Positions 11,248 through 40,268 of a stretch of DNA of 54,256 nt are shown here, one piece after another; position 1 is the stretch's first letter; every line of letters starts with the position of its first letter. Origin of the DNA: a virus (lineage: Duplodnaviria; Caudoviricetes); the IMG/VR virus record IMGVR_UViG_3300033141_001736, positions 1-54,256 of that record. One strand, written 5' to 3'. A program made the translations under genes and the position numbers. Below the pieces are notes generated by a model. It ran no database searches. It was not told where the DNA came from and saw only the letters and a list, made by a program, of their open reading frames with translations.

Positions 11248-11250
11248 GGC

Positions 11251-11829: not shown

Positions 11830-12315
11830 GTTTGTCCTCCTCCTTCGCTCTTGGCTTTCCTTGCTCTTTTTTGGTCCTATCCTTTTTGCCCCATCCTTTT
11901 TTTGAGGTTTCCTTCTGGTTCTTGTGGTGTCACAGTACGCCCATCAACTGGGCGTGAAAGTGAAGAGAGAGGCTGTCACTTTGTACCTATCGGGGGGGAG
12001 AATTACACACCCGCCTCCCCAGGCCCGTTATCCCGATAGCTTTACGGGCGCGCGATGTAGTCGGTGATGGAAGTTGCGGGTTTCGGCGCTCATCCCTATT
12101 GCCACAAGAGCCTACGTGGGCCAAGCGGAGTTTCGAGCCCTGGGTTTATTGCGTGGCTATGCTGCTCGCCCCTATCCCTGCTGTTATACCCGACCCAAAA
12201 GCACAAGACCCGTGGCATGTGCCGCGGGTCGGCTTCATAACGCTGCTATTGCACTCGGGGTCTCCGGGGGTCGCCATTGTTTCATCTTGACAATAACTGT
12301 CCTATTTATGGCTCA

Positions 12316-19529: not shown

Positions 19530-20087
19530 TTTCTAATCTCCTTCCTGTGCGCATTGGACGGACATTTGGCTAGCGGAACTATGCCGCTCCGCTAGCCCAT
19601 ATCTCAGTCCAATTCCAGCATGGGGTCTATGGGTGCCTCCCAAAAGCACCAGCAGGTCCGGTCCCAACGGCTGACGACCTACTCCCTTGCTCTTCAAATG
19701 GCAAGCCCGGTCCCAACGGCTGACGACCTACCATTTAAAAGAACAACTCCTTTACGGAGCCATGTGGTTTTGCCTCCACGCTTCGCATGAACGCTTCCGA
19801 TGTGCCTAGGGGCCTATCCGCTGGCTGCCCGCCTGTTAGGCACACCGCCGTAGAGGATGCGGTTGTTCGGTCCCTCTACGCTTCTCCTTCTAACCCTCGG
19901 ATTTACGGAGCCGACCTCCGGGCTTTCCGACTGCTTGCAATCCTCCCCACTCCAACCCCTCACCGGATACCCCGTACTAGCGGCCCCGGGCTTGGCGTTG
20001 GCAGTTCGGACACTCGGGCAATCGTTCCACCCTTCAGTTCTGCCACTCCTACCTCGGTTGTAAAGGTGCCTCTTTCCTTGTTCCTTT
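19530..20087 (-). ncRNA. candidate long structured leader / non-coding RNA
   Basis: About 550 nt with no credible minus-strand ORF between a strong promoter and the first gene; many inverted repeats; boxA-like start. Confidence 0.5.
19658..19731. repeat. 25-bp perfect direct repeat, two copies
   Basis: ccggtcccaacggctgacgacctac at 19658-19682 and 19707-19731. Confidence 0.95.
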
Positions 20088-20093
20088 ATAAAG

Positions 20094-20122
20094 ATTATAA
20101 TGGAAAGTTATAAAAAGTTCAA
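20094..20122 (-). promoter_or_regulatory. main leftward sigma70-like promoter
   Basis: TTGAAC-N17-TATAAT on the minus strand in an AT-rich patch. Confidence 0.75.
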
Positions 20123-20166
20123 GTGATTGCCGGGCCGCCGATTGGGCAATTGGGTCTCTATTAGTG

Positions 20167-20195
20167 TTGCATCCACGTCGTATTCGGTGTATATT
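20167..20195 (+). promoter_or_regulatory. rightward sigma70-like promoter
   Basis: TTGCAT-N17-TATATT upstream of the AAGGAG RBS of the first right-arm gene. Confidence 0.55.
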
Positions 20196-20237
20196 GCCCC
20201 TGTATCCACCATGTAATTTCAAGGAGTTGGTATCCCG

Positions 20238-20834
20238 GTGAATGAGATTTGGAAGAATCGCATTGTTGGCCAGGGCGAGATTGACCCTGAGCAATTGTTA
20301 GCGAACCCGAGGAACTGGCGAATCCATCCGGAGGCGCAGCAAGAGGCGCTCCAAGGTTCTTTAGAGGAGGTTGGGTGGGTGGACGAAGTTACCGTCAACA
20401 AACGAACGGGCTTCGTCATTGATGGTCACTTGCGTGTCGCTTTGGCGCTCCGGCATAACCAAAAGAAGGTGCCCGTCAAGTATGTGGACCTGAGCGAAGA
20501 AGAAGAAATGCTTATACTGATGACGCTCGACCCTATTACGGGCATGGCGGTCATGGACGCCGAGAAGATGCAAGTATTGATAAACGAGGTTGCAATCGAG
20601 GATGAAAGGCTTGGCGAAATACTAACCGAATTAAAGGACGAGATGGAGGCGAGGCTTTTTCAAACACCCACCCTCGATGAGCTTGAAGCGGAATATGGCG
20701 AACTCGAGGACGAAGAATTGTGGCCAATTCTGCGCTTCAAAGTAAGCCCCGAAGTTTATGCTATGTTCATGGACCGCTATGATAAAGCCCCCGGCGATTC
20801 GCCTTCCGAGAAAATCGCTGCCATGCTGAAATGA
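20238..20834 (+). CDS. ParB/Srx N-terminal domain protein
   Basis: ANPRNWRIH...SL.EVGW...VIDGHLRV. Confidence 0.8.
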   Translation: MNEIWKNRIVGQGEIDPEQLLANPRNWRIHPEAQQEALQGSLEEVGWVDEVTVNKRTGFVIDGHLRVALALRHNQKKVPVKYVDLSEEEEMLILMTLDPITGMAVMDAEKMQVLINEVAIEDERLGEILTELKDEMEARLFQTPTLDELEAEYGELEDEELWPILRFKVSPEVYAMFMDRYDKAPGDSPSEKIAAMLK

Positions 20835-21700
20835 AGCTATATCTCGCTTCTATTCCATACACAGCAAAAGTGTTGCTCGCCAATACTGGGCGGCCCTATA
20901 ATTTTCTGTTCTCGTTCTATCATTTCATAAACGAAGATATTGCCGAGTTGCAGCAAACATACTTTCCAGAAGGTTTTCGCCTTTTCGCTGATAGCGGGGC
21001 GTTCTCCGCCTGGACACTGGGCCTAGAGATTGACATTGATGCCTACATTGCGTGGCTACATAAATGGAACCGCTTCTTTGATTGCTATGCCAATCTCGAT
21101 GTGCGGGGCGACCTGAAGGGAACAAAAGAAAATCAGCGCATTCTCGAAGAGGCGGGCCTGGAGCCATTGCCTGTATATCATGCAGGCGAGCCTTTTGCCT
21201 ACTTTGAGGAGTTGATTGAAAAGTACGACTACATTGCACTTGGCGGCGTTGCTGGAAAGCATCTGCGCGGGACATCATTGATGCGTTGGTTGATAAGATG
21301 CTTTCGGGCGGTTGAAGGAAAACCCGTCGCGCTGCATGGTTTTGGTATGACAGCTTGGACTTTGCTGAAGTCTTTTCCCTGGTACTCGGTGGATAGCACG
21401 TCGTGGGCAACGGGTAATCGCTACGGAACTGTGCAAATCTTCGATGATGAGCTTGGTTGTTGGTACAGTTTCCATTGTTCCAACAAAAGAAAAATCTACA
21501 CCTATGGGAGGTATTTGCGAAAACTCGGCATAGACCCAAAAGTGTTCGTAGAAGCAAACGACCAGGCGATAAAGAATCGTTTCTTGGCGATAATCGGCGC
21601 AAGGTCCTATCAAGTGGCCGCCCGGTGGCTTACGGAGAAATGGGCACATGCTCAAATTCATCAACCAACTTACGGAATTGGCCGAAAGGCTTGTGATTGA
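20831..21700 (+). CDS. tRNA-guanine transglycosylase-fold (TGT/DpdA-like) protein
   Basis: FADSGAFS, NLD, PVYH, IALGG, LHGFG, YSVDSTSW motifs; adjacent to queC. Confidence 0.8.
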   Translation: MKLYLASIPYTAKVLLANTGRPYNFLFSFYHFINEDIAELQQTYFPEGFRLFADSGAFSAWTLGLEIDIDAYIAWLHKWNRFFDCYANLDVRGDLKGTKENQRILEEAGLEPLPVYHAGEPFAYFEELIEKYDYIALGGVAGKHLRGTSLMRWLIRCFRAVEGKPVALHGFGMTAWTLLKSFPWYSVDSTSWATGNRYGTVQIFDDELGCWYSFHCSNKRKIYTYGRYLRKLGIDPKVFVEANDQAIKNRFLAIIGARSYQVAARWLTEKWAHAQIHQPTYGIGRKACD

Positions 21701-22514
21701 AAATCTTGACCCGCCACCTCTCTTGTTCTGGGAAGCCTTTTTGGAGGCGCTTGGCGAGCCGGAGTATCCGAAGATTGGTGTAACTCAGATACCTTGCGAG
21801 CCGAGAAACGTCGTGCTTGTTTCGGGTGGGCTTGATAGCACAATTGGATATTTCATGTGGCTTGCTCAGGGCAGGGAGCCTACTGGCCTGTATATCGATT
21901 TTGGGCAGAAATACAAAGAAGCAGAGCTCTATGCGATGCGCCAACTTGGCATCCACTTCGAGGAAGAAACCATTGCCCTTTCGGTTGAAAATCGCGTCGG
22001 GGAATGGGCGCACATCATTCCCGCGAGGAACATGATTGCCCTACTTCATGCCGCGCAAAAAGGAAGCAACGCAATCTTATTCTCTGTCGTAAATGGCGAA
22101 AGCCCACCGCGGGGAGGAGACAAAAGCGACCGTTTCATTACGCTCATGGACGATATGCTTCCTCAGCGCATCTACACGATGCGAGAACGAACGAAAGCTC
22201 AATGGGTGCGCTTCGCCATAGACCAGAAGATAATGACAATCGAGCAGCTGCTGAAGACATACTCGTGTTTTGAGGGAACTGTTGGTGTGCAATGCGGGCG
22301 TTGCCAATCTTGCTTGCGCAGGTACATAGCATTCGCCTACAACGATATTCCGGACGATGAAATTCTTTGGAACTACGAAGTTCATCCACTCGAAGGTTGT
22401 AAGGAGGCCATTGAGAAATACAGGAAGAAGATGAGAGTGGGAAATTGTCGTTACACAGCACAGCGAATAAAAGAAACGTTGGCCGTCATCGGAAAGGAAG
22501 ATGTCCATGCCTGA
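21648..22514 (+). CDS. queC: QueC-like 7-cyano-7-deazaguanine synthase (PP-loop ATPase)
   Basis: SGGLDS, IPARN, TK, TYSC...CGRCQSC Zn motif; start may be GTG at 21693. Confidence 0.9.
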   Translation: MLKFINQLTELAERLVIENLDPPPLLFWEAFLEALGEPEYPKIGVTQIPCEPRNVVLVSGGLDSTIGYFMWLAQGREPTGLYIDFGQKYKEAELYAMRQLGIHFEEETIALSVENRVGEWAHIIPARNMIALLHAAQKGSNAILFSVVNGESPPRGGDKSDRFITLMDDMLPQRIYTMRERTKAQWVRFAIDQKIMTIEQLLKTYSCFEGTVGVQCGRCQSCLRRYIAFAYNDIPDDEILWNYEVHPLEGCKEAIEKYRKKMRVGNCRYTAQRIKETLAVIGKEDVHA

Positions 22515-23583
22515 GAAAGAAATTCGTGTCGCGGTTGTTGGTGTCGGTAACTGTGCAAGTGCGCTCATTCAGGGGCTGGAGTTCTACAAGGCCGTTGAGG
22601 CAGATGGCGAGATACCCGGCGTGATGCACCCAAATCTCGCCGGTTACTTCATCCGCCACATAAAAGTCGTGGCGGCATTCGATGTGGCCGCAACGAAGGT
22701 CGGGTATCCCTTGGCCGTAGCTATACATGCGCCACCAAACAATGCCATGCAATTTACCGATGTCCAAAGCGATGTGATTGTCCAGCGAGGGCCCTTGCTC
22801 GATGGCTTCGGCAAGTATCTGAAGGAGCGAGTACCGGTTTCATCGTTGGCCTCCGTCAATGTGACCGACGCCTTGAAAAAGGCGAGGGCGGAAATTGTGG
22901 TCAATTTCTGTCCTGTCGGCTCAGCGCAAGCCACCCGGTATTATGCCCAAGCGGCCCTTGATGCAGGCTGCGCGTTTATCAATTGCATACCCGAATTCAT
23001 CGCCAGCGACGAGGTTTGGGCGGCAAAATTCGAAGAGCGAGGCCTGCCCGTCATTGGGGATGATGTGAAGTCGCAACTTGGTGCCACCATCATTCATCGG
23101 GTCTTGTCGCGATTGTTTGTAAATCGAGGTGTCTGGCTGGACAGAACTTATCAATTGAATTTCGGTGGAAATGGCGATTTCCTCAACATGCTGGAGCGTA
23201 GCCGTTTGACCAGCAAGAAGATTAGCAAAACCCAGTCGGTCAACAGCATGTTGCCAGAGCATCTCGGGGAAGGGGAGATACACATCGGGCCATCTGATTA
23301 CGTGCCATTTCTGAAGGACCAGAAGAATTGCTACATCAGAATGGAGGGGCGTAACTTTGGGCATCAGCCGGTGACAATCGAACTGAAACTGGAGGTGCAG
23401 GATTCTCCCAATAGCGCCGGTGTTGTGATTGATGCAATTCGTTGTGCTAAACTGGCTTTAGACCGCGGCCTTGCCGGTGTTCTGATTGGCCCAAGTGCTT
23501 ATTTCATGAAGTCGCCACCAGAGCAGATGCCGGATTGGAAGGCATTTCGTAAGGTCGAGGAATTCATAAACGAAAGGAGGTGA
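22501..23583 (+). CDS. ino1: myo-inositol-1-phosphate synthase
   Basis: VGVGNCAS, GDDVKSQLGATI, YQLNFGGNGDFLNM, SKKISKT, DSPNSAG, FMKSPP; full length and intact. Confidence 0.95.
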   Translation: MSMPEKEIRVAVVGVGNCASALIQGLEFYKAVEADGEIPGVMHPNLAGYFIRHIKVVAAFDVAATKVGYPLAVAIHAPPNNAMQFTDVQSDVIVQRGPLLDGFGKYLKERVPVSSLASVNVTDALKKARAEIVVNFCPVGSAQATRYYAQAALDAGCAFINCIPEFIASDEVWAAKFEERGLPVIGDDVKSQLGATIIHRVLSRLFVNRGVWLDRTYQLNFGGNGDFLNMLERSRLTSKKISKTQSVNSMLPEHLGEGEIHIGPSDYVPFLKDQKNCYIRMEGRNFGHQPVTIELKLEVQDSPNSAGVVIDAIRCAKLALDRGLAGVLIGPSAYFMKSPPEQMPDWKAFRKVEEFINERR

Positions 23584-23587
23584 TGAC

Positions 23588-23920
23588 TTGATAGAGACAA
23601 TTAAGAACGACGCGGGGCCAATCGCAATCCGCTACACGCCGGAATTTACTGCGATTTGCTCGGTCGGCAAGGCTCCCTTCTCTGGTGTTATGGAGATTGA
23701 GTACTTGGCCGACGACCTGCTCTTGGAGTTCCAGTCCTTTGAGATTTGGCTTCGGGAGCACGCCAACGCCGAGACAACTATCGAGGGCTTCTGCAAGATG
23801 GCTTTCGATGCGTTGACCGAGGCGCTTGGTGACATTCCTCTGGCCGTCACGGTGACGGCTACGACAACCGTACATGCGCCAGTTGAAGCGCGCATCGAAA
23901 GGAACTTTGAAAATGTCTAG
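23588..23920 (+). CDS. QueF-like tunnelling-fold protein
   Basis: PEFTAIC...P....IEY...LLE..S pattern; divergent from the canonical QueF motif. Confidence 0.7.
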   Translation: MIETIKNDAGPIAIRYTPEFTAICSVGKAPFSGVMEIEYLADDLLLEFQSFEIWLREHANAETTIEGFCKMAFDALTEALGDIPLAVTVTATTTVHAPVEARIERNFENV

Positions 23921-24605
23921 GAAAAGCAGGAAGAACCGATTGCCCATTGCTTGGGCCGTAGTGGCATTGGTAGGAGGTTATATCTTCTGCCAGGCTCTTG
24001 CCGATGTTGCGGCTACCAAGATTGTGCAGATTGGCAATGTCACGATGCCTGCGGGCACGTTCGTCTTCGCCATCACATTCACGCTGCGAGACATGCTTCA
24101 CAAGCGTTTAGGGCGTGAATGGGCGCGCGCTGCCATCGTCATGGCGGGCGTTTTGAACCTCATCATGGCGGGTTATCTGTACTGGATGTCTCGCCTGCCC
24201 GCTCCCCCGTTCTATGGCTTGGCCGAAGCCTGGTCTAGCATCTTCGCCTTCGTGCCTGCCATCGTCCTGGGCTCTATCATCGCGGAGGTGGTCAGCGAGT
24301 GGGTTGATACGGACGTCTATCATGCCGTGGCCCGATACTTCAAAGGCCCGTGGCAGTTCATGAGGGTCATCATCTCCAACCTCGTCTCTTTGCCGCTGGA
24401 TAGCCTTATCTTCGGTGCTTTGGCATTCGTGTATCTGCCCGTAATCTTTGGCGCTGAACCTATGCCATTCGCCGCCGCCATGCACATCGTTGGGGGCCAA
24501 ATCATCTTCAAGGCCATTGTGACAGCGGTTTCTCTTCCGGGCATTTACTTGGTCAAAGAAGAACATCTTCTGACGACCGCATCTTTGCAGGAGGCCGGTA
24601 ACTGA
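23913..24605 (+). CDS. yhhQ: queuosine precursor transporter (YhhQ/VUT family)
   Basis: Multi-TM; ATK..MPAGTF.F..TF..RD; R...SN.VS..LDS.IF..LAF. Confidence 0.9.
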   Translation: MSRKSRKNRLPIAWAVVALVGGYIFCQALADVAATKIVQIGNVTMPAGTFVFAITFTLRDMLHKRLGREWARAAIVMAGVLNLIMAGYLYWMSRLPAPPFYGLAEAWSSIFAFVPAIVLGSIIAEVVSEWVDTDVYHAVARYFKGPWQFMRVIISNLVSLPLDSLIFGALAFVYLPVIFGAEPMPFAAAMHIVGGQIIFKAIVTAVSLPGIYLVKEEHLLTTASLQEAGN

Positions 24606-24621
24606 AAGACAGGTAATAAAC

Positions 24622-25107
24622 ATGCCCAATAAGACTTGGCCGCAATACATTGAGACGGCCGAGCGCCGAGCGTTCGTACTGAACCTCAGAAAACGAGGCG
24701 TCAACTATCGTCAGATAGCGCAACTCGCCATTCAGCAATTCGGCGCAGAACGATTACCTGCTGGATGGGATGAGCGATATGCCTACAAAGACGTCAAACG
24801 CGAGCTGGCCCGCCTTCGCAAAGAGATAGCCGAGGATGCCGAGGCAGTTCGCACTCTGGAGTTGGAGCGATTAGATGCCCTGTATGTCGAGATGCACCGT
24901 CAGGCATTACAGGGCATCGTCGGCGCTGTCGATAGGTGTTTGAGAATCATGGAGAGGCGAGACAAACTGCTTGGCCTTTCCATGCCCGAAAAGCTAGAGG
25001 TGACTGGCGAGGGCGGCGCCCCATTGTTGAAAGAGGTCGTCATCATTCATAGCAGCGAGGAGCCGGACGGTGATGGAGCCGACGGTCGAGGCGACGGCAA
25101 GAGTTAA
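24622..25107 (+). CDS. terminase small subunit
   Basis: N-terminal HTH; LELERLD...RR.KLLGL..P.K.EVTG.GG.P; directly upstream of TerL. Confidence 0.75.
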   Translation: MPNKTWPQYIETAERRAFVLNLRKRGVNYRQIAQLAIQQFGAERLPAGWDERYAYKDVKRELARLRKEIAEDAEAVRTLELERLDALYVEMHRQALQGIVGAVDRCLRIMERRDKLLGLSMPEKLEVTGEGGAPLLKEVVIIHSSEEPDGDGADGRGDGKS

Positions 25108-26395
25108 GCCGCCGCCTTTTCTCCGGTTTGAGGCTGGCCGCGTATTCGTTTCGTACCATGCTGGTCAGGATGTCGCATGGTATAGCAAGCGGCGCTTCGT
25201 CTTTGTGTTCGCAGGAACGCAGGGAGGCAAAACCGTCTTTGGCCCCTGGTGGCTGCACCGCGAGATACTGCGCACTTCTGAGCCCAAGGGTGAGAACGAC
25301 TATCTCGCTGTCACATCCTCTTACGACCTGTTCAAACTGAAGATGCTGCCTGAGATGAGGCGGGTGTTTGAAAATATCCTGGGCATAGGCCGCTGGTGGG
25401 CGGGCCAGCGTGTGATTGAGTTGCGCGACCCTGACACCGGCAAGTTCTGGGCCAAGAAGGGCGACGATTTGATGTGGGGGCGCATCATTCTGCGCTCAAC
25501 GCAATCCGATGGCGGTCTGGAAGCCGCAACTGCAAAAGCCGCGTGGCTAGACGAGTGCGGCATGGATGAGTTCAAAGTGGACCATTGGGAGGCCGTCCGC
25601 CGCCGTCTCAGTCTCGCACGGGGCCGTGTATTGGGCACGACAACACTCTACAATCGCGGCTGGCTCAAAGCCCAAATCTACGACCCATGGACACAAGGCG
25701 ATGATGAGATTGATGTTGTCCAGTTCCCATCCTATCTGAACCCGGCATTCCCCAAGGAAGAGTACGATCGCATTGTCGCCCGGCTGCCTGCGTGGAAAGT
25801 CAACATGTTTTACCGGGGCGAGTTTGATGTGCCCGCGGGCCTCATCTACGACAACTGGGATGATGATAAACAAGTGATTGAGCCCTTCGCCATTCCGGAA
25901 GATTGGCCGGTGTATGGCTTCATCGACTTCGGTGGCGTGAACACGGCTGCTCTCCGCTGCGCTATGAACCCCGAGAACAAGACCTACTATCTCACGGATG
26001 AGTATTGGGAGGGCGGCAGGACTGCGGCCCAACATGCTGCCTACTTACGCAAATGGAACGCAAAGGTTTGGTACGGGGGCGCTCCGTCCGAGGAGCAATG
26101 GCGGGCTGAGTTTCGGGCGGCGGGCATTCCGGTCCAGAAGCCTGCGGTGTCTGATGTCGAAGTCGGCATAGACAGGGTGTATGGCGCTCATAGCGAAGGT
26201 AGGATATTCTGTTTCAAGCACTTGGTCCATTACCGCGACCAGAAGGGTATGTACAGGCGAGAACTCGACCGCAATGGTGAGCCGACGGAGAAGATACACA
26301 ACAAGAACGAGTTTCACTTCATGGATGCGGAACGGTACGGCATAGCGACATTGGAGCGAAGGCCGAAGAAGGCGAAGGTGGTGCGACTTGGCTAA
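25070..26395 (+). CDS. terL: terminase large subunit
   Basis: Walker A GTQGGKT, Walker B AWLDE, GTTT, nuclease IDFG and HFMDAERY. Confidence 0.93.
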   Translation: MMEPTVEATARVKPPPFLRFEAGRVFVSYHAGQDVAWYSKRRFVFVFAGTQGGKTVFGPWWLHREILRTSEPKGENDYLAVTSSYDLFKLKMLPEMRRVFENILGIGRWWAGQRVIELRDPDTGKFWAKKGDDLMWGRIILRSTQSDGGLEAATAKAAWLDECGMDEFKVDHWEAVRRRLSLARGRVLGTTTLYNRGWLKAQIYDPWTQGDDEIDVVQFPSYLNPAFPKEEYDRIVARLPAWKVNMFYRGEFDVPAGLIYDNWDDDKQVIEPFAIPEDWPVYGFIDFGGVNTAALRCAMNPENKTYYLTDEYWEGGRTAAQHAAYLRKWNAKVWYGGAPSEEQWRAEFRAAGIPVQKPAVSDVEVGIDRVYGAHSEGRIFCFKHLVHYRDQKGMYRRELDRNGEPTEKIHNKNEFHFMDAERYGIATLERRPKKAKVVRLG

Positions 26396-28127
26396 GAAGG
26401 ACGAACTCACAACAGTTGCAGAACAAAGCGTCCAGGAGCGCGGCAAGCGCAAGGATGTAATGGCAGCGCACTCGCTGCTGCTCATGCTCGCGCGGGCGGG
26501 CACACTTGTTGCTCCGTGGTGGTCGCGGCGGCGTGACAGCGACCTGAGAAAGTTTTGGAAAGAGAACGACTATCTTTCCGGTGCGGTGTATACATTCACC
26601 AGCCGCATCAAAACTGTCCCATGGCGCATTGTCCCCAAAGACATGACCGTAAAGGCTCATGTCAGACATGCCGACGAATTTGAGGCGCGGCTGAATGAGT
26701 TGAGCGATTTTGGCAAGGGCTGGATGACACTCATTTCAAAGTTTGTCGAAGACTTGCTCACTCAGGACAACGGAGCCTTTCTCGAAGTCATCGGCAAAGG
26801 CAAGCCTGACGGGCCTATCGTGGGGCCTGCAATGGGCCTTGCCCATCTCGATTCGTGGCGATGCCAACGGACGAGCAATCATGAATTCCCCGTTGTCTTC
26901 ACCGACACCGACGGCAAGCGGTACAAGCTACATTACACCCGCGTCATCATGGAGAGCCAGATGCCCTCGCCGCTGGCTCAAATGCATGATGTTGGCTTTT
27001 GCGCATTGAGCCGCTGCATCAACAATGCTCAATCGCTTCTCGACATACTCATCCACAAGCAAGAGAAGTTGGGTTCTCGGCCTCAGCGCGGCCTACTATT
27101 GACCGGCGGCGGGCTGGACCCCGATGACGTGCGCGAAGCGTTCCGCGTGAGCAATCAGGTCATGGATGACCAGTTACTCCAGCGGTACTCCAAGACGGTT
27201 GTCGTGGGCCATCAAGAATTGCCCGATGCGACCCTGCAACTCATTGAACTCTCTGGGCTGCCCGATGGCTTCAATGAGGAGCAAAGCACAACCTTGGGAA
27301 TGGCCGCAATCGCGCTGGCGTTTGGCATGGACCCGCGGGAGTTGTGGCCCGCAATCACGGGAGGCGTCACAAGGGCAGAGGCGCTCATCGCTCATATCAA
27401 GCAGCGGGGCAAGGGCTTGGGCGAGACATTGCTTGCAATCGAGCGCCATCTGGGTTCGAAGTTCCTCCCGCCGTACCTGACCTTCAGCTTCGACTTCCAA
27501 GATGATGAGCAGGATAGGCAAAAGGCAGAGATAAAGAACATCCGCGCCCGCAGGCAAGTGATGATGCTTGAAGTGGGAGCGATGGATAGCCGCACCTTGC
27601 GAGAGGAACAACTGGCCGACGGCGACCTGACAGAAGCCCAGTTTGAAAGGATGGAGTTGCGTGATGGCCGCCTGAAGGATGGCACTCCGGTACTGACACT
27701 TTTCTTCAACCCTGACTACTCAGACCTGCTAGACTTGGGGATTGATAATCCCTTGGACAAGCAATCGAATGATGCCACCGAAGTGAAGTGGGCAATCAAT
27801 GCTGCGAAGGCCACAATCCTCGAAAAGATGGCCGGAGCGAACCCTGGCGAGAAGAAGCGGCTGAACGAGGCGATGGCGGCTCTTGATAAACTGCTCGAAA
27901 TGTACGGCGCGGAGAAAGAGACAAGGGCTGAGACAGAGCGGCCCACGCCCGCCACGCCCGAAGAAGGCGAAGAAACAGAACCGGAAGAACTTGAAGAGGG
28001 CATCAAGCAGCCTCCAGGCGAATTCACGGAAGAGGACCTGGAAGTGAAGGCAAATAGCATCTATGCAAAGACAATGAAAGCGATAAGCGATGCCGCCAGG
28101 AGAATCAGAATTACACGCTCTTCGTAA
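26388..28127 (+). CDS. portal protein
   Basis: Follows TerL; DLL..DNGAF.EV, IALAFG.DP.EL; size. Confidence 0.85.
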   Translation: MAKKDELTTVAEQSVQERGKRKDVMAAHSLLLMLARAGTLVAPWWSRRRDSDLRKFWKENDYLSGAVYTFTSRIKTVPWRIVPKDMTVKAHVRHADEFEARLNELSDFGKGWMTLISKFVEDLLTQDNGAFLEVIGKGKPDGPIVGPAMGLAHLDSWRCQRTSNHEFPVVFTDTDGKRYKLHYTRVIMESQMPSPLAQMHDVGFCALSRCINNAQSLLDILIHKQEKLGSRPQRGLLLTGGGLDPDDVREAFRVSNQVMDDQLLQRYSKTVVVGHQELPDATLQLIELSGLPDGFNEEQSTTLGMAAIALAFGMDPRELWPAITGGVTRAEALIAHIKQRGKGLGETLLAIERHLGSKFLPPYLTFSFDFQDDEQDRQKAEIKNIRARRQVMMLEVGAMDSRTLREEQLADGDLTEAQFERMELRDGRLKDGTPVLTLFFNPDYSDLLDLGIDNPLDKQSNDATEVKWAINAAKATILEKMAGANPGEKKRLNEAMAALDKLLEMYGAEKETRAETERPTPATPEEGEETEPEELEEGIKQPPGEFTEEDLEVKANSIYAKTMKAISDAARRIRITRSS

Positions 28128-29782: not shown

Positions 29783-32700
29783 ATGCCTTGGAAGAAGGTG
29801 CGCAATCATCCGCGCTGTAAGCCGGGGCAGATTGCTGTCGTCCAAGTCCATGATGGCCGTCTTATGGGCTGCCACGATGATGAGGAAGCGGCGAATGCGC
29901 AGCTTGCCTATCTCAACATTCATGTCAAGGGCGGACCGGGTTCAGGGAATTGGGGCCACGCCGGGAGACCTGGACAGAGAGGAGGTAGTGCGCCGCGAAG
30001 TAGCGGTGCGGCGATGCCAATAAGTCATTCAGAGTACAAGCTGTCTGAGATGACGAAAGAGCAGAGAGAAAGACTCGGGAAGAAGTTGTATGCTGTCAGG
30101 GATGAATGGCGAGATAGCATCCAGCACATCGGCGATCTTGAAGAATACGAGAAAAGGCAGAAGGCTTGCGATTTACTTGGAAGTATTGCGCAAGACATCG
30201 ATGAGAGTTTCTTTGATAAAGGCAGCATAGTCCTTCGAAGGGATAAAGGGCGTGTAGTCGGCTTCATATATTGGGATGAATATGATATAGGCGGAAAGGG
30301 TGCTTACTGGCATCTTAGCGCCTTGGCTACTATTGAAAAAGGGCATGGCACGGCGCTATGCCTAGATTTTCTCCTAAAGGCTTCCCGTGAAGGCAAGGCT
30401 ATCGGAGGCACTTCCTTGTCCACCGCCTGGACGTTCTATCAAGGTTTGATGAAATCGGTTGGCCGTGAAGATTTGATAAAACAGGTGGCGCAAAGGAGCA
30501 AAACTGGAGTTAGGATTTCGATAAGTGCTGAGACATTGCGCGAGATAATGGAACCGTTCCAGGGTTTGGAAATCAAAGGTTTGAAAGAGGATGCCGAGAA
30601 ATTCCTGCGCGAATTCCGCAAGAAGCACGACGATGCGGGTGTTTGGTTCATACCTGACAAGGAAGAAAAAGGAGGCCCCGGAAGCGGTAACTGGGGACAC
30701 GCAGGCAGACCCGGACAACGAGGTGGAAGCGCGCCGCGAAGTAGCGGTGCGGCCATGCCCATCACTCATCAGGAATACGAACTGCGCAAGATGACAGAGG
30801 AGCAAAGAAAGAAATTTGGCGAGGAGTTAACGGACCTGACATACGAGTGGGAAGAAAAGAAAAACCAGATTCAAGACCCGAACGAAAAGACGAAGCGCGG
30901 CCAGGCCCTCGACCTATTGAATGTCGTTGCATTTGGCATCAAGCACGGTTATCGAGAGTCGGGCAACATCATCCTGCGTCGCGATAAAGGCAGCGTTGTT
31001 GGCTTCTTGATGTATGAGGAAAAGGGTCCTAACACTTGGCATCTTGCCGACTTAGCTACAATCGAGAAGGGCAATGGCACGCCGTTGATAATGGACTTTC
31101 TCCTGAAGGCAGGGAGGGAGCGCAAGACTGTTTCAGGCAACGCTTTAGGCAGCGCCTGGACGTTCTACGAGGGCCTGTTCAAAGCAACTGGCCGAGCGGA
31201 CTTGGCGAAGGAGGTCGCAAAGCACGAACCGTATGGCGTCCGACTTCGCATTCCCGGTGACGTGATGGCGGAGATAATGGAGCCGTTCCAGGGCTTGGAG
31301 GTCAAGGAACGCAAGAAGGAGGCGGAGAAGTTCTTGCGCGAGTTCCGCAATAAGCACGATGACATCGGCGTTTGGTTTCATCACGACCCAGACCAGATGG
31401 AAGTGCCTACAACGAAAGGAGGCCCAGGTTCAGGAAACTGGGGCCACGCGGGACGTCCGGGCCAACGTGGAGGCAGCGCGCCCAAGAGCGTCGTCATTGG
31501 CGAGCCGCAGAAGCTCACGAAGACGGCAATCTCGAAATACATCCAATGGTCCACTAGCCGCTACAATGAGTACCCGAAGAAATACGTCGTTGACACAGCA
31601 TACAGAATGCTCACGACCGGCAAAGACGAATATGGTGAGAGCAGGGCCGTGTTCTCTTCTGGAGGTTATACACCGTCCTCAGCCATGACCGGCAATGATT
31701 ACCTCGTTGATGGAGAGGAGAAATACATCGCTCGCGGAGTTGGGTGGGAGATTGATGATTTCGTTGAGCATGAGCGTGTGTATTTCACCGAGAAGGAAAT
31801 GGCAGACAAAGGCGGCCCTGGCTCTGGAAACTGGGGGCACGCGGGACGTCCAGGGCAGAGGGGAGGCAGTAGTCCCGGCGGAGGTTTGGGCGCAGTACCA
31901 TTCCAGCGTGTGACATACGAAGTTGAGGGCCTCGGTGAAGTGGTCAAACTGCCAAAGGAGTATTCATCGGATGCCCCCGCCGGTGTGGACGTGGTGAAGT
32001 TCTTCAAAAAGAACCCTGACGGAGCGGTCGTCTGGCAGGAGGACCAGGATTTCTTTGGCGAGAGCCGTCAAGCCTACTACATTGCTCATCGCAACGTCCG
32101 GCCGGGAGAGAAACCGTGGCGCATTACTGAGTTGGAGCGCACAGAGGGACCGGGCGGCAGCGTGCTCATGCCAAGAACGCATACGCAACATGGCAGTCCT
32201 AGAGAATTACTCCAAGCGATGAACAAGTTGGCCTCACGGGCGCAGGATAGCCAGATAATCACGGGCTTCAAGCCCATCGGTTTGACGAGCCCAGTTGAAT
32301 TGAAGGCGGTGATTGCACTCAGCGACAGTCTTGTGCTAGGATACGATGAGGAGAATGAGATGGAAGAAAAAGGCGGTCCAGGTTCTGGCAACTGGGGACA
32401 CGGAGGCCGTCCCGGAATGAGAGGCGGGAGCGCGCCAAAAGGTGGCGGCTTTGGAGGTGGCTATGGGAATCTGGGCTTGGCTCCGAGCGCGCCATCCGTC
32501 GTCGGTGTCAAGGCTCCTAAAACAGGGCGCAAAGTCTACGACTATTCAACCAACAAGCTCTGGCAACATGCCGGCGGCACAGACGGTTTGAAAAAGAAGT
32601 TCCCGCCGTCAAAGACGGATGCCGACAAGGTTTTCGACCACCTAACCGAGGTGTATGACCATGAAGCCGATTACTTGGTCGGCGCAGGTTTCGAGGAGGT

Positions 32701-36014: not shown

Positions 36015-36728
36015 ATGGGTTATCGCGTATTCGTCACAACCTCAGACAAGTATCTGCTTGCTCTGAGGCCTTTTGCTTGGCTTTTCAACAAGTACTGGTC
36101 CCCCGAAGTCGAGGTCATTGTGGGCGGCTTCACGCCGCCTTCATTTTCGCTGCCGTCGAACTTTCATTTCATGGTCCTGGGCGAGCAAGAGAAGTATCCG
36201 GTGGATAGGTGGTCGGATGCTTTTATCCGCATGGTGGAGTACCTGGGCGATGAAATATTCGCCTTCATGCTGGAGGACTACTGGATAACAGAGCCTGTGG
36301 ACCTGCGCGCGGTTCAGATGCTATACGATTACATGCGCCAGTTTCGCTATGTCATCCGCATGGACCTGACAACGGACCGTATGTTCGCGGGCGGGGCGCA
36401 GCCTTACGGCAAGGTCGAGGACATTGAATTGGTGAAGTCGTCGCCGGGTTCGCCGTATCATATGAGCCTGATGACTGCGTTTTGGCGCACAGAGCATCTA
36501 ATGAAAATCTTGGTCCCGCATGAGAGCCCTTGGGACATAGAAATCAAAGGGACAACAAGGCTCTCTGCTTTTGGCGATACGATGCTGGTACTCGGCACAA
36601 AAGTTGCGCCCGTGAAGCATTGCCTCGCCTTCCGCGCAGACCAGCCCGGCAAGCTGCTTCTCGATGGCTTGAAGGCAGAGGATATTGATGAGATGAGAAA
36701 CCTCGGCCTACTGGAGGGATTAGAATGA
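36015..36728 (+). CDS. putative GT-A glycosyltransferase
   Basis: TSDKY...FNKYW, FMLEDYW metal motif, ESPW.IE; cluster context. Confidence 0.6.
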   Translation: MGYRVFVTTSDKYLLALRPFAWLFNKYWSPEVEVIVGGFTPPSFSLPSNFHFMVLGEQEKYPVDRWSDAFIRMVEYLGDEIFAFMLEDYWITEPVDLRAVQMLYDYMRQFRYVIRMDLTTDRMFAGGAQPYGKVEDIELVKSSPGSPYHMSLMTAFWRTEHLMKILVPHESPWDIEIKGTTRLSAFGDTMLVLGTKVAPVKHCLAFRADQPGKLLLDGLKAEDIDEMRNLGLLEGLE

Positions 36729-37948
36729 TAAAACAGAAAGGCAAGGCGGGGCGAAGGGCCATTCGGCGTGTCGGCACCGGCGACTTCAATGCTTCCCTGC
36801 GCATGGTCACTCTTGTGAATAAGGTGCTAGCATCGGGCCGCCTTTCCTATGGGCCGATGTCTAAGAGGTTCGAAAGAGAGTTCGCACGGCTCCACGGCTG
36901 CCGTTATGGCATTCTCTCAAACAGCGGCACTTCCAGTCTCCATGTTGCTCTCCAGGCCATGAAAGAGATACACGGCTGGCGGGATGGAGATGAAGTTATT
37001 GTGCCTGCTTCGACGTTCGTGGCAACCGTCAATGTCGTCCTGCACAATCGCCTGAAGCCTGTTCTCGCGGACATCACGGTTCACGACTACGGCCTGAACC
37101 CGCGGGAGGTCGTCAAGAAACTCACGAACCGAACACGGGCCATCATCCCCGTTCATTTGTATGGGCAGCCTTGCAACATGCGCGCATTGATGGCGATTGC
37201 CGACAGGTACAGTTTGAAAATCATCGAGGATAGTTGCGAGTGCATGTTCGCAGCCCATCACGGAATGCCCGTTGGCTCCATGGGCGACATCGGATGCTTC
37301 AGCCTATACAATGCCCATATCATCACCGCGGGCGTCGGCGGCATTGCAACGACCAGCAATCCGGATTACGCCAAGGTGATGAGGTCGCTGGTCAATCACG
37401 GCCTTGATATTCAGGAGTTGAACACAGATGAAAATTTCTCGCCCCGGCCCGTTACTGGCCGCTCTTTTCGTTTCAGCCTTTGTGGTCACAGTTATCGCAT
37501 CACGGAATTGGAAGCTGCGCTGGCGTTGGCGCAGTTAGAGGATTGGCAGCAAATCATCAAGACACGCCGCAGGAATGCGCGACACCTACGCACTGGCTTG
37601 CGCAACATCGAACGCGAGATAGGTGTGAGCCTGTGGTATCTACCAAGCGCGCGCCAGGGCAACACGCATTCGTGGATGATGTTCCCCATTCTGCTCCGAC
37701 GGGATGTGCTCGCCAAAGAGAAATTCATTCGATGCCTCAATGCTCTGGGTATCGAGACACGAGACATGATGCCCATCGTTTCGCAGCCCATTTACAAGGA
37801 TTGGATTAGGCCGGAAGATTATCCCGTTTCGAAGTATGTAGACGAGAATGGCTTCTATATCGGCTGCCATCCCGGACTGACGCCGGACGACATCGAGTAC
37901 GTTTTGCAGGTCTTCCGCGATTACATTTACGAGACGTGCCGTGTTTGA
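36725..37948 (+). CDS. DegT/DnrJ/EryC1/StrS PLP enzyme, His-type (ColD/E1-like dehydratase)
   Basis: NSGTSSL, TFVAT, PVHLYG, IEDSCE, FSLYNAHIIT with His at the usual Lys position. Confidence 0.9.
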   Translation: MIKQKGKAGRRAIRRVGTGDFNASLRMVTLVNKVLASGRLSYGPMSKRFEREFARLHGCRYGILSNSGTSSLHVALQAMKEIHGWRDGDEVIVPASTFVATVNVVLHNRLKPVLADITVHDYGLNPREVVKKLTNRTRAIIPVHLYGQPCNMRALMAIADRYSLKIIEDSCECMFAAHHGMPVGSMGDIGCFSLYNAHIITAGVGGIATTSNPDYAKVMRSLVNHGLDIQELNTDENFSPRPVTGRSFRFSLCGHSYRITELEAALALAQLEDWQQIIKTRRRNARHLRTGLRNIEREIGVSLWYLPSARQGNTHSWMMFPILLRRDVLAKEKFIRCLNALGIETRDMMPIVSQPIYKDWIRPEDYPVSKYVDENGFYIGCHPGLTPDDIEYVLQVFRDYIYETCRV

Positions 37949-38672
37949 GAACGAATACTGGACGCGCTTTGAAAATCTCCCTCCCATTGAGGGTTCCGGC
38001 TATTGGGCCAACCGCCGCAAAAACATGCGGGCGCATATGGTCAAAGAGCCGCCAGATAAGCCGTGGACATGGAGTACCGTCATAGCAACAATGTATGTCG
38101 GCCACGGCAACAAAAAGGTCATCAAAGCCGCCAAAGAAATCCCTCCCGAATGGCTCGGCAGGCTCGAAGGCGAAGAGGATGCTCCCAACCTCGTTTGCCA
38201 AGCATATCACCTGTGGCGCTGGCTACGTCGTCAATCGTCCCTGCGCTTGGAGGACCTGAGTACCATTGTGGAGTTCGGTGGCGGCTATGGGGCGATGGTT
38301 GTCGTTTGCTCTGCTCTTGGCTTCCGCGGCGATTACTACATCTACGACTATCCCGAAATGGCATTGATGCAGGAGTATCACCTGGGCACCCGCGAGATTG
38401 AATGTAGTGTCCATTGGGAGCCGCATCCCAGAAAGCCCGACCTGTTCATCTCGTGCAATGGCATCGACGAGGCGCCGCTTGATGAGCGAGAAGCATTCTT
38501 GGGGACAATCAGGCCATCGCAGTTCTTGATTGTCGCTCAACACATGTGGCTGGACATCAATAACTACAATTACTTCCACGACTGGGCGCAAAGACAATTC
38601 AGCAAGTGGCGTGTCCTATGGGCCATTGAGAAAGACGGCAACGCAATCTATATCATGTCGATAGGGCGATAG
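37941..38672 (+). CDS. putative sugar O-methyltransferase
   Basis: SAM motif IVEFGGGYG, Y.IYD.PE...Q..HL. Confidence 0.75.
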   Translation: MFENEYWTRFENLPPIEGSGYWANRRKNMRAHMVKEPPDKPWTWSTVIATMYVGHGNKKVIKAAKEIPPEWLGRLEGEEDAPNLVCQAYHLWRWLRRQSSLRLEDLSTIVEFGGGYGAMVVVCSALGFRGDYYIYDYPEMALMQEYHLGTREIECSVHWEPHPRKPDLFISCNGIDEAPLDEREAFLGTIRPSQFLIVAQHMWLDINNYNYFHDWAQRQFSKWRVLWAIEKDGNAIYIMSIGR

Positions 38673-38673
38673 T

Positions 38674-39444
38674 ATGCAGGAACGACAGAATGTAGTTGTC
38701 GTTGGATACCCGAGAAGCGGAAACACATGGCTTGCCCGATTGCTCGGCAACGCTCTCAATTCCCCCGTGACCGGCTTGAAAAAAGCAATGCCTCTTGCTA
38801 ATGAGGGCAAAGACCGTCCCGGTCCTTACTGGGTGAGACAGTTACATCTTCATCCTCATGCAGGCCCCTGCGAGCACAAGGTTGCGCTTGTCAACGCGGG
38901 AACGTTTTGTCTTGATAATTGGCGCGATGAGCGGATAGCTTTCATCGTCCGCGACCCTCGCGATGTCGCCGTGAGCGCCGCGAGTTACTGGCACATGCCG
39001 CTTGCCAAGACCGTTCGGCGCATGAAGGATGCGAAGTTTCCGATGGGCTTTGGGCCATGGTCGAAGTTCGTCCGCGACTGGCTCCACGTCTACAAAAACA
39101 ATGTGGACCACCGCATGATAGTTGTGAAGTATGAGGCCCTGAACGAGGATACAGTTGCCATCCTGGGAGCGGCCCTTGCGATGCTCGACCTTGAACCCGT
39201 AAAGCCTTTGGAACAGGTTGCGGCGGAAGAAAGCATCGAGGCCAAACGCAAGCAGGTTATGAAAGATGGCGACCAGCGGCCTTACGGCAAGGACATACAG
39301 TTGCACCATCTCCGGAAAGGCATCGTGGGCGACTGGAAGAACTGGGACTGGTCCAGCATCGGCCCGTTTGCGGACGAGACGTTTGGCCCCACGATGGACC
39401 TGCTCGGCTACGAAAGAGAGGAGAACTGGTGGTCATCCCGATAG
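38674..39444 (+). CDS. PAPS-dependent sulfotransferase
   Basis: YPRSGNTW (5'-PSB), RDPRDVAVS (3'-PB), RKG.VGDWKN. Confidence 0.92.
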   Translation: MQERQNVVVVGYPRSGNTWLARLLGNALNSPVTGLKKAMPLANEGKDRPGPYWVRQLHLHPHAGPCEHKVALVNAGTFCLDNWRDERIAFIVRDPRDVAVSAASYWHMPLAKTVRRMKDAKFPMGFGPWSKFVRDWLHVYKNNVDHRMIVVKYEALNEDTVAILGAALAMLDLEPVKPLEQVAAEESIEAKRKQVMKDGDQRPYGKDIQLHHLRKGIVGDWKNWDWSSIGPFADETFGPTMDLLGYEREENWWSSR

Positions 39445-40268
39445 ATGATGCCTTATTCGGACATGCAAAAGCCATCGGTTTCTCGGGTGAGAATGCGGGC
39501 CGCAGCCCAACCTACTTCGAGTGGCTGCGGGAAGACCGTGAGCATCAAGACATGAAGGTCTTTACAGACGCTTCGCTGAAGCGTGCGGCAGAAGACCCAA
39601 CGCCGCGCAAGGTTGCTTTGATACTAGAGCCTTACTGCCTGCATCCTGAGCCCTATGAAACGGCAGCGGCCATGATTGAACACTTTGACGCTATCTTCAC
39701 GCACCACACGGCTTGGGCGAACAGAGGCAAGCCGTGGCGCTGGTATCCCTTTGGCGGCTCATGGATAAAGGATTGGCCCCAGAGCGTCCCCAAGACGCGT
39801 AAGGTGAGCATACTTGTTTCGAAGAAGCGGGCCACAGACGGCCACCGGCTCCGCCACAAAGTAGCAACGACCTTCAATCATATCTTGGATGTCTACGGCG
39901 AGCCTTATACGCAATGGCTAAGTAACAAGCGGCAGGCGCTGGAGCCTTATGCGTTCTCGGTTGTGATAGAGAATTGTGCCGCTGAAGGTTTCTTTACTGA
40001 GAAGTTACTTGACTGTTTCGCTCTGAGGACGGTTCCTATCTACTGGGGCGCGCCGGACATTCACCGCTACTTCGACCCTGATGGCATCATCACTTTCCAT
40101 TCGATCTATGATTTGGCGAGTATCCTTTCGCGTCTAACGCCTGACGAGTATACAAAAAGGCTCTCTGCAATCGAAAGCAATGCGCATCGGGCTATTATCT
40201 ATCGGACGCCGGAAGACTGGCTATATGAGCGTTATCCCGAATTCTTCGCCACCGGAGGGCTTAGATGA
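39429..40268 (+). CDS. GT10 (alpha-1,3-fucosyltransferase-like) glycosyltransferase
   Basis: Y.FSVVIEN...FFTEKLLDCF...TVPIYWG. Confidence 0.85.
   Translation: MVIPIDDALFGHAKAIGFSGENAGRSPTYFEWLREDREHQDMKVFTDASLKRAAEDPTPRKVALILEPYCLHPEPYETAAAMIEHFDAIFTHHTAWANRGKPWRWYPFGGSWIKDWPQSVPKTRKVSILVSKKRATDGHRLRHKVATTFNHILDVYGEPYTQWLSNKRQALEPYAFSVVIENCAAEGFFTEKLLDCFALRTVPIYWGAPDIHRYFDPDGIITFHSIYDLASILSRLTPDEYTKRLSAIESNAHRAIIYRTPEDWLYERYPEFFATGGLR

Follow-up and report, generated by a model that had tools for sequence, protein, structure and literature searches.

Gene content of the modification operon

The IMG/VR virus record IMGVR_UViG_3300033141_001736, a linear sequence of 54,256 bp with a CheckV completeness estimate of 71%, (its whole length hereafter the window), was analysed with a focus on a six-gene operon at 20238-24605 on the + strand, in which a gene for myo-inositol-1-phosphate (inositol-3-phosphate) synthase (ino1) is embedded among homologues of 7-deazaguanine DNA-modification genes. 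In order, the operon encodes a protein resembling the ParB N-terminal domain (20238..20834, 198 aa; phrog_620 1.4e-16, phrog_498 1e-20), a DpdA-like DNA guanine transglycosylase (20831..21700, 289 aa; phrog_887 2.4e-50), a divergent QueC-family PP-loop ATPase of a kind called here the DK type (21648..22514, 288 aa; PF06508 55.3 bits), an intact Ino1 (22501..23583, 360 aa; PF01658 4.2e-34), a QueF-like T-fold protein (23588..23920, 110 aa; TIGR03139 1.3e-8 and PF14489 0.0018, both below cut-off) and a homologue of the YhhQ/COG1738 queuosine-precursor transporter (23874..24605, 243 aa; PF02592 1.2e-31), all on the + strand.

Adjacent genes overlap or nearly abut. The ParB-like and DpdA-like genes overlap by 4 nt, the DpdA-like and QueC-like genes by 53 nt, and the QueC-like stop and the Ino1 start by 14 nt, with GGAAGGAAG upstream of the Ino1 start. 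A gap of 4 nt separates Ino1 from the QueF-like gene, which overlaps YhhQ by 47 nt, or by 8 nt if YhhQ begins at 23913, which may be its likely start. Sixteen nucleotides beyond YhhQ, the operon leads directly into a gene in the small-terminase position (24622-25107, +; phrog_645 3.6e-22, labelled 'Rnase E' in PHROGs), the large terminase gene TerL (25070-26395, +; phrog_2 8e-20) and a putative portal gene that was weakly matched in the PHROG comparison (26388-28127). A single run of six genes into the terminases, with an intact Ino1 between the QueC-like and QueF-like genes, had been described in an earlier sequence-only reading of this stretch, and both descriptions were confirmed. The coupling to packaging suggested at the same time had the position before the terminase as its whole basis; the same layout occurs without ino1 in the mycobacteriophages Bipper and Nadezda, and the suggestion gained no support.

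Phage FolE, QueD and QueE queries gave nothing below E = 0.4 in the window by tblastn, and a six-frame hidden Markov model search with PF01227, PF01242 and PF04055 gave nothing at E ≤ 0.1, which bears out the earlier remark that folE, queD and queE are missing from the window. As the record is linear and ~71% complete, these genes could lie in its missing part; the window as recovered does not hold the complete preQ0/G+ pathway (FolE, QueD and QueE beside DpdA). Genes for an HAD phosphatase, an IMPase (PF00459) and an inositol dehydrogenase (PF01408) were likewise not found in the window. Amino-acid:DNA transferase (AADT) and HMUDK genes, known around Ino1 in other phages only, gave no tblastn match below E = 0.5.

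The G+C content is 0.48-0.51 in the first three operon genes (0.48-0.50 in the DpdA-like and QueC-like genes) against a window mean of 0.554, which fits a mosaic module and proves nothing. A megablast search of the operon against 50,697 phage records gave zero matches, and TerL is at most 28% identical to that of any cultured phage.

Recurrence of ino1 beside phage DNA-modification genes

In a tblastn search of the same 50,697 phage records, the window Ino1 matched 19, namely 16 Stenotrophomonas Menderavirus, two Caulobacter Cr30 and one Ralstonia RP13. All 16 Menderavirus records have Ino1 beside a QueC-like gene, together with FolE/QueD/QueE and a DpdA-type gene. In Mendera, which was inspected in detail, the order is FolE, a hypothetical protein, Ino1, a 123-aa protein (small HAD), the QueC-like protein, a 403-aa protein ('TGT') and QueE. 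The portion of the paper on the sister phage Ps15 that was used here annotates the 403-aa protein as a queuine tRNA-ribosyltransferase and lists the Menderavirus ino1 as a bacteria-like, horizontally acquired gene (PMC9025141). In Cr30, Ino1 comes after an AADT (PF18724 1.3e-52), and RP13 has an AADT homologue, an open reading frame (ORF) of the HMUDK cluster and the same kind of small protein after Ino1.

IMG/VR was then scanned for the pattern of an alignment of five phage Ino1 proteins, which returned 530 relatives, and the 80 most window-like were kept. Their neighbours were typed by BLASTP with a query panel and by all-against-all clustering, and Pfam was run on cluster representatives. 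An AADT homologue is present in 63 of these best 80 loci and lies less than 1 kb from Ino1 in 62 of them, at a median gap of 79 bp; seven more loci have an HMUDK-type protein alone, which brings the thymidine-hypermodification type to 70/80. Three loci (L040, L080 and L083) are of the deazaguanine type, with DpdA, QueC-like, FolE and QueE genes, and seven are of neither type: five short T4-like contigs, one 2.4-kb contig with a truncated ORF of the AADT cluster, and L076. On the 273-kb contig of L040 the order is QueD-QueE-FolE2-methyltransferase-QueC-like-Ino1-DpdA. At L169, L171 and L173/L174, Ino1 is accompanied by a QueC-like gene and FolE/QueE, with no DpdA detected by BLAST. A QueC-like gene adjoins Ino1 in every deazaguanine case seen.

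The best 80 of 595 Ino1 relatives in GTDB species genomes were used as a cellular control. AADT, HMUDK, DpdA, QueC-like and small-HAD neighbours were found in 0/80 of these cellular loci, and FolE in 2/80. The linkage of ino1 to phage DNA-modification genes is therefore recurrent and specific. It is no one-off of this record, since ino1 occurs with DpdA-type and QueC-like genes in unrelated lineages (Menderavirus, L040, L080 and L083); a survey of neighbourhoods for ino1 with TGT-like and queC genes, the check proposed beforehand, thus found the suspected linkage to recur, with AADT neighbours far commoner.

Two arrangements were distinguished around the AADT-linked genes. The first runs TET/JBP dioxygenase, AADT, Ino1, small HAD-like protein and P-loop nucleotide kinase, and resembles a complete post-replicative pathway for thymidine to which an inositol module has been joined; its order is conserved in T4-like phages (L005, which is Cr30, L043-L049 and similar loci). 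The second comprises Ino1, an HAD_2 phosphatase (1e-17) or an FkbM methyltransferase, AADT, a kinase, an HMUDK helical domain and a thymidylate-synthase-like protein. Loci L050, L051, L063, L065, L071, L072 and L087 have no BLAST-detectable AADT and carry an HMUDK-helical protein together with a 372-aa protein without a Pfam match, possibly a divergent transferase; a C5 DNA methylase is present in five of these seven. Among the deazaguanine-type loci, a GT1-family glycosyltransferase of ~470 aa lies directly 3' of the Ino1-linked QueC-like gene in L080 and L083 (L083 ~10890-12281), and S-adenosylmethionine (SAM) methyltransferases occur in the clusters of L040 and L083. The proposed adduct may be decorated further at these three loci.

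A phosphatase gene often accompanies the synthase: at 47 of the 80 viral loci, Ino1 is immediately followed by either the small HAD-like protein or an unrelated HAD_2 phosphatase, and two unrelated phosphatases at the same position argue that a free cyclitol would be the usual product. The 123-aa protein is called HAD-like because of its motifs (DxDGV, TGR(S), a conserved K and (E)DD) and a weak best fold match of its model (pLDDT 90.5) to lipin/Pah and other HAD phosphatases (E 7e-4, TMq 0.56); a PDB profile search with its family returned spurious ubiquitin matches only. This small HAD accompanies the virus-only Ino1 clade described below and does not occur in the window, in L040 or at the viral loci with cellular-type Ino1.

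A QueC subtype that co-varies with Ino1

The motifs of canonical QueC are SGGxDS, YxQxHxxE, VPxRN, YPDC and a zinc motif, with Y35, R99, Y131 (E. coli) and Y189 as essential residues, according to the sections of Libby et al. 2026 drawn on here (PMC13329287). The window QueC-like protein scores 55.3 bits with PF06508 (cut-off 22) and 44.1 bits with TIGR00364, short of the equivalog cut-off of 150.3. It keeps the PP-loop as SGGLDS, the IPARN motif and the zinc motif C-x8-C-x2-C-x2-C, the cysteines of which (C207/C216/C219/C222) are invariant across the DK subtype. YPDC is replaced by GGDK and YxQxHxxE by FGQKYKEAE, so that the protein retains the PP-loop and zinc motifs of canonical QueC and departs from it in YPDC, in YxQxHxxE and in its TIGR00364 score.

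A scan of IMG/VR with four QueC-like proteins yielded 70 loci. Ino1 adjoins QueC in eight of them, and these are precisely the loci nearest the QueC-like protein of the window or of Mendera. For the motif table, identical sequences were merged and L189, L195, L227 and L234 were left out, as they gave no BLASTP match to two QueC queries. All 10 distinct Ino1-linked QueC-like proteins have xxDK(S/N) at the YPDC position and lack the Tyr and His of YxQxHxxE, with the PP-loop, xPxRN and the zinc motif kept; the 47 distinct unlinked phage QueC proteins comprise 41 with DC, two with DK and four others. The QueC subtype thus co-varies with Ino1, and the Ino1-linked proteins are classed as a distinct subtype in which the ATP and zinc motifs are kept and the substrate motif is changed. 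The DK-type protein is the sole QueC-family gene product in Mendera (complete genome) and L040 (97% complete), where genes for forming 7-carboxy-7-deazaguanine (CDG) are present. The two unlinked DK sequences, L200 (~1679-2400) and L201, read 'TRDKD' and lie beside DpdA, QueE and FolE, with no Ino1 within the recovered flank.

The best PDB sequence match of the window QueC-like protein is Cap9 (9NTO, 2.6e-7, versus 7.7e-4 for QueC 2PG3), and an AF2 model (pLDDT 78.5) likewise had Cap9 as its best Foldseek match (1.4e-7), followed by QueC and QatC. The earlier idea that an inositol would be attached after adenylation by QueC gains indirect support from the distinct DK subtype and from the nearness of the window copy to Cap9, a conjugating enzyme.

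Identity and ancestry of Ino1

Bacterial Ino1 carries out the first step of mycothiol and phosphatidylinositol synthesis. The window protein scores 117.4 bits with PF01658 (gathering cut-off 27) and 468.3 bits with TIGR03450 over model positions 1-355, and is assigned to the family at a score below the NCBI equivalog threshold of 638. It aligns with Mycobacterium tuberculosis Ino1 (1GR0) over residues 6-356 at 439 bits; the second-best solved relative is Ari2 (6K96), a five-membered-cyclitol synthase, at 212 bits, and an Ari2-like identity was set aside on these scores. Across 80 cellular Ino1, 122 alignment columns reach a conservation of 97% or more; the window protein keeps 115 of them and differs at seven (D>P70, T>A82, L>C137, I>V189, V>L193, W>F270 and R>Q274). 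Given these 115 kept columns, the window Ino1 is most likely a functional inositol-phosphate synthase.

Phylogenetic trees were built without L003 (the window itself), L004 (same contig as L020), 12 duplicates and matches with fewer than 300 aligned residues. In a FastTree phylogeny of 151 Ino1 proteins, 36 of the viral sequences group together without any cellular member (support 100); in this virus-only clade, AADT-linked and deazaguanine-linked proteins are mixed and L083, L080 and Mendera fall in three subclades. The remaining viral AADT-linked Ino1 nest at several points among cellular sequences. The window Ino1 belongs to the cellular type, with a best identity of 62% to a metagenome-assembled genome (MAG) of Actinomycetota, and stands outside the virus-only clade; it and L040 form separate long branches among cellular-type proteins, the branch of the window measuring 0.65-0.75 against a median of 0.16-0.26. 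A single clade for the five deazaguanine-linked Ino1 was rejected with IQ-TREE (delta lnL 359, p-AU 8e-52) on 65 rows, a hand-picked subset of the 151, with the deazaguanine group defined only once the first tree was known. As the deazaguanine-linked Ino1 are scattered over the tree, ino1 was recruited independently several times into DNA-modification clusters.

The salvage-type core and its variable position

The ParB-like protein has no Pfam match; a ParB-like gene also precedes DpdA in the mycobacteriophages Nadezda and Bipper and in the metagenomic relatives L242, L245 and L246. With the DpdA-like protein, 246 phage records were matched by tblastn, the best being mycobacteriophages at 39-41% identity, annotated as queuine tRNA-ribosyltransferase or DpdA-like. 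These matches and phrog_887 establish homology to phage DpdA/TGT-fold proteins, while no match to PF01702 (TGT) was found at E ≤ 0.01 and no PDB sequence match at E ≤ 1. The PF01702 model also misses the 'TGT' proteins of Mendera type (0/5), and a PDB sequence search with these returned nothing.

The QueF-like protein scores 18.9 with PF14489 and 34.8 with TIGR03139, neither of which reaches the cut-off. In its alignment with Bacillus subtilis QueF (4F8B), PEFTAIC pairs with PEFTSLC, which leaves the catalytic-type Cys of EFTxxCP in place, and LEFQSFEIW pairs with VESKSLKLY, so that both lysines of the NADPH motif are lost. That motif is E(S/L)K(S/A)hK(L/Y)(Y/F/W) in the portion of PMC10516641 used here, and the window reads EFQSFEIW. 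Across the family of 12 database proteins to which it belongs, Cys24 is invariant and the NADPH motif is replaced by EFESF(E/D)xW, also written EFxSF(E/D)xW. Profile comparison with the PDB placed the family nearer QueF (5.9e-5) and FolE (~1e-3) than the archaeal QueF-L of Pyrobaculum (5JYX, 0.92), which it resembles in small size and absent NADPH motif. YhhQ is assigned to its family at 110.6 bits with PF02592 (cut-off 27.2) and 87.8 with TIGR00697 (cut-off 50.95).

An IMG/VR scan with the single QueF-like protein gave no relative; relatives came from the protein database and from metagenome contigs, 22 of which (L238-L259) encode proteins 44-67% identical to that of the window. Contigs with flanking sequence run in the order ParB, DpdA, variable slot, QueF-like, YhhQ, with no preQ0 synthesis genes (e.g. 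L245 5288-8950), and YhhQ comes after the QueF-like gene in 11 of the 22. The slot holds a class I SAM methyltransferase in L242, L245 and L254 (by Pfam) and an ORF of similar size in L243 and L248, a GT4 glycosyltransferase in L241, a DK-type QueC-like gene in L257 and a DK-type QueC-like gene with a methyltransferase in L259; it is empty in L240, L246 and L253. Such variation is the behaviour expected of a slot for decorating enzymes. The QueC-like and Ino1 genes occupy this slot in the window, which is accordingly described, from gene order and homology, as a recurrent salvage-type core with these two genes in the decorating position.

Relation to known systems

Phage DpdA systems, as presented in the parts of Hutinet et al. 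2019 (PMC6884629) and Cui et al. 2023 (PMC10516641) drawn on here, share with the window a DpdA-type gene and queuosine-pathway homologues upstream of packaging genes. Nadezda and Bipper have the same frame of ParB-like, DpdA, deazaguanine genes, phrog_645-type gene ('Rnase E' label), terminase and portal; the middle of this frame is QueD-QueE-FolE in the two mycobacteriophages and QueC-like-Ino1-QueF-like-YhhQ in the window. A conserved 141-aa hypothetical protein lies between DpdA and QueD in Nadezda (L001 2043-2468) and Bipper (L002 2047-2472), which have no QueC, and the DNA of Bipper may contain the QueC substrate (PMC6884629, in the part used). Compared with these systems, the window has no FolE, QueD or QueE, its QueC-like protein is without two substrate motifs, its QueF-like protein is without the NADPH motif, and Ino1 is embedded among them. 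None of the eight deazaguanine derivatives listed in the same parts of PMC6884629 and PMC10516641 bears a cyclitol.

Cap9 of type IV CBASS and QatC of Qat defence conjugate CDG to a protein N-terminus (PMC13329287, in the sections drawn on; PDB 9NTO, 9Y01/9Y02). With the window QueC-like protein, which has Cap9 as its best sequence and fold match, they share the PP-loop and the zinc-cysteine motif, and also, on the side of the window as a proposal, the passing of an adenylated base to a nucleophile other than ammonia. Cap9 keeps an aromatic-x-DC motif (YYDCS in the alignment), whereas the window protein has GGDKS. Cap9 and QatC are host defence proteins; the window gene is a phage gene with no evident partner of the Cap9 or QatB kind, and its proposed nucleophile is a small cyclitol.

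The main home of phage Ino1 is thymidine hypermodification by 5-hmdU DNA kinase and AADT, with AADT (PF18724), HMUDK (PF18723), P-loop kinase and TET/JBP genes in 70/80 of the best loci, in Cr30 and in RP13; the window itself has none of the genes of the AADT/HMUDK system. The nucleophiles of thymidine hypermodification in the work of Lee et al. in 2018 and 2021 are reportedly amino acids and polyamines. The word 'inositol' has zero occurrences in the 2018 (PMC5889632) and 2021 (PMC8989533) papers. Context for AADT in thymidine hypermodification was taken from part of PMC13229309. M. tuberculosis Ino1 resembles the window protein over a full-length alignment (439 bits, 115/122 conserved columns); the window gene differs in being viral, in its place in a DNA-modification operon, in a score of 468 against the cut-off of 638 and in its long branch.

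A full-text literature search, with subscription papers and supplementary tables outside it, found no paper linking inositol or Ino1 with phage DNA modification and no text naming inositol together with DpdA; texts combining 'inositol' with hypermodification terms named it only for structural matches of glycosyltransferases. Titles and abstract openings held nothing on the DNA chemistry of Menderavirus, Cr30 or RP13. The supplementary gene-content and QueC-cluster tables of PMC10516641, PMC6884629 and PMC13329287, likewise outside the search, may already list these QueC-like proteins or the Menderavirus phages.

Proposed mechanism and alternatives

The best reading of the locus, which we regard as evenly poised between right and wrong, is that the deazapurine is coupled to a cyclitol supplied by Ino1. 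The region would then be a salvage-type 7-deazaguanine DNA-modification operon with the ParB-like, DpdA, QueF-like and YhhQ genes as its recurring core, an assignment to which we give equal chances either way. Ino1 would convert host glucose-6-phosphate to inositol-3-phosphate, from which a host phosphatase would free myo-inositol. The QueC-like protein would adenylate the carboxyl of CDG and hand the activated base to the cyclitol, not to ammonia, comparable to the transfer to a protein amine by Cap9 and QatC. DpdA would insert the base into phage DNA before packaging, with conjugation taking place either before or after insertion. As FolE, QueD and QueE are missing from the window, CDG is assumed to be provided by the host, or to arise when the QueF-like protein acts on salvaged preQ0 and possibly turns it into the form that is used. 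The product would be a base with an ester-linked inositol moiety that would protect the phage DNA from host nucleases. In this scheme and in the thymidine pathway alike it is the base side that would be activated (an adenylated carboxylate here, a phosphorylated 5-hydroxymethyl there), so that only a free nucleophile would be needed. This is what Ino1 and a phosphatase would supply, which is why coupling of CDG to inositol by the QueC-like protein is proposed.

Several points weigh against this reading. The case for an inositol-bearing base is one of guilt by association, made from gene context, and the 80 viral loci, as the best of 530 matches, are a non-random sample. The window contains no FolE, QueD or QueE, and no phosphatase was found in it. 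We know of no precedent in the QueC family for a hydroxyl nucleophile forming an ester, and an amine route would need a dehydrogenase, for which PF01408 is absent from the window. The cluster of DegT aminotransferase, sulfotransferase and GT10-like genes at 36.7-40.3 kb could consume inositol, and L200 and L201 have the DK motif with no Ino1 nearby. The window DpdA matches the 'DpdA' of Mendera type weakly (hhalign probability 17.6%), and for this reason, together with the empty Pfam and PDB searches, the label of the latter rests mainly on the annotation in the part of PMC9025141 used here. Ino1 occurs in 0 of the 22 relatives with the QueF-like module, although most of these contigs are 1-4 kb long and L257 and L259 start inside the QueC-like gene. 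The hypermodification with an Ino1-derived moiety that the sequence-only reading put forward is partly supported, through the recurrent and specific linkage, and finds no support in these 22 relatives.

It seems unlikely to us that the region is an ordinary deazaguanine operon (for dPreQ0, dADG, dG+ or dPreQ1) with ino1 as an unrelated metabolic passenger, and similarly unlikely that Ino1 as such a passenger feeds the inositol pools of the host (mycothiol/phosphatidylinositol in an actinobacterial-type host) or the phage glycan cluster at 36.7-40.3 kb. A passenger would agree with the cellular type of the window Ino1 (62% to the Actinomycetota MAG, 439 bits to M. tuberculosis, outside the virus-only clade), with the relatives that carry the DpdA-QueF-like-YhhQ core without ino1 in the recovered sequence and with the treatment of Menderavirus ino1 as a horizontally acquired, bacterial-like gene in the same part of PMC9025141. 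The DegT aminotransferase, sulfotransferase and GT10-like genes also favour it; they had been named at the outset as a possible alternative sink for inositol and are indeed present. This cluster is, however, 13 kb off, against an overlap of 14 nt between ino1 and the QueC-like gene. A passenger also leaves several observations unexplained: a DNA-base transferase at most about 1 kb from Ino1 in 62 of the 80 best viral loci against 0 of 80 cellular ones, a QueC-like gene beside Ino1 in every deazaguanine case, a QueC subtype that co-varies with it, and its repeated, independent entry into such clusters.

That the Ino1 homologue does serve DNA hypermodification and the attached moiety is something other than simple O-linked myo-inositol is also improbable in our estimate, and so are the particular forms considered, i.e. 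an inositol bearing a phosphodiester or phosphate, a glycosylated inositol, an aminocyclitol, or attachment through a thioimide of the QueF-like protein. The GT1-family genes that adjoin the QueC-like gene on its 3' side in L080 and L083 (these glycosyltransferases are also given as GT1/GT4), the SAM methyltransferases in L040 and L083, the DegT/StrS-family aminotransferase in the window, the QueF-like protein with its Cys and without its NADPH motif, and the place of Ari2 as second-best solved relative (212 bits) are all points in its favour. On the other side, a phosphatase of two unrelated HAD kinds after Ino1 in 47/80 loci argues for a free cyclitol, no inositol dehydrogenase is present in the window, the other deazaguanine clusters with Ino1 lack the QueF-like gene, and the window Ino1 is far closer to true myo-inositol-phosphate synthase than to Ari2. 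Finally, phage anti-defence genes often cluster, and Ino1 neighbourhoods also hold DNA methylases, dUTPase-like genes and nucleotide-metabolism genes, yet a counter-defence or regulatory module of Ino1 and phosphatase (making a host-blocking small molecule or draining glucose-6-phosphate) that is merely co-localised in anti-restriction islands is very improbable given the median gap of 79 bp to the DNA transferase and a gene order conserved among Ino1 proteins 46-60% identical to that of the window, and it leaves the co-variation with one QueC subtype unexplained.

Beyond the window, attachment of an Ino1-derived cyclitol to the base can be widened to a proposal that we hold, in each of its parts, at slightly less than an even chance. 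Phages would make an undescribed class of cyclitol-bearing DNA bases with a portable Ino1 module, usually with an HAD phosphatase, that serves two base-activating chemistries: phosphorylated 5-hydroxymethyl-uracil with an AADT-family enzyme, and CDG with a Cap9-like ligase of the QueC family and DpdA. The expected products would be inositol-thymidine and inositol-deazaguanine, with calculated nucleoside [M+H]+ of 421.145 and 473.151. The window would be a salvage-type, phosphatase-less member of the deazaguanine form, and phiCr30 would represent the thymidine form. If the chemistry holds, the system would be a variant of known phage DNA hypermodification systems, a placement that is partly supported, since the gene linkage is observed and the chemistry is what we infer from it.

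Hypermodified phage DNA withstands restriction enzymes and other nucleases, and the modification pathways are a source of enzymes for biotechnology. Should the proposal be true, a cyclitol adduct would bring a chemical class that is new to DNA, extending the known deazaguanine series of eight small substituents and the thymidine adducts with amino acids and polyamines, and the QueC family would gain a new kind of nucleophile. It would also account for phage ino1, to which published annotations give either no function or a bacterial-like origin by horizontal transfer. Since cultured carriers exist, namely phiCr30 (the standard transducing phage of Caulobacter) and several Menderavirus phages of Stenotrophomonas, the idea is directly testable.

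Other features of the window

The genes of the window form two diverging arms, leftward up to ~19.5 kb and rightward from ~19.8 kb, and both GC skew and AT skew flip sign near 20 kb, where the arms meet (19530-20238). No tRNA genes were found in the 54,256-bp window. In the structural arm, a single ORF of 1578 aa occupies 29783-34519 (+), and to its right lie BNR/Asp-box and beta-propeller proteins and a Sipho_Gp37-like protein. The same arm holds, at 36015-40268 (+) and outside the operon, the DegT/StrS-family aminotransferase (36725-37948; PF01041 9.4e-90), the sulfotransferase (38674-39444; PF00685 2e-14) and the GT10-like glycosyltransferase (39429-40268; PF00852 1e-8), together with two ORFs without a Pfam match, one of them between the aminotransferase and the sulfotransferase in the region 36725..40268. 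An aminocyclitol route through this aminotransferase was set aside for the window, which has no inositol dehydrogenase. The genes at 36015-40268 may glycosylate or sulfate virion proteins.

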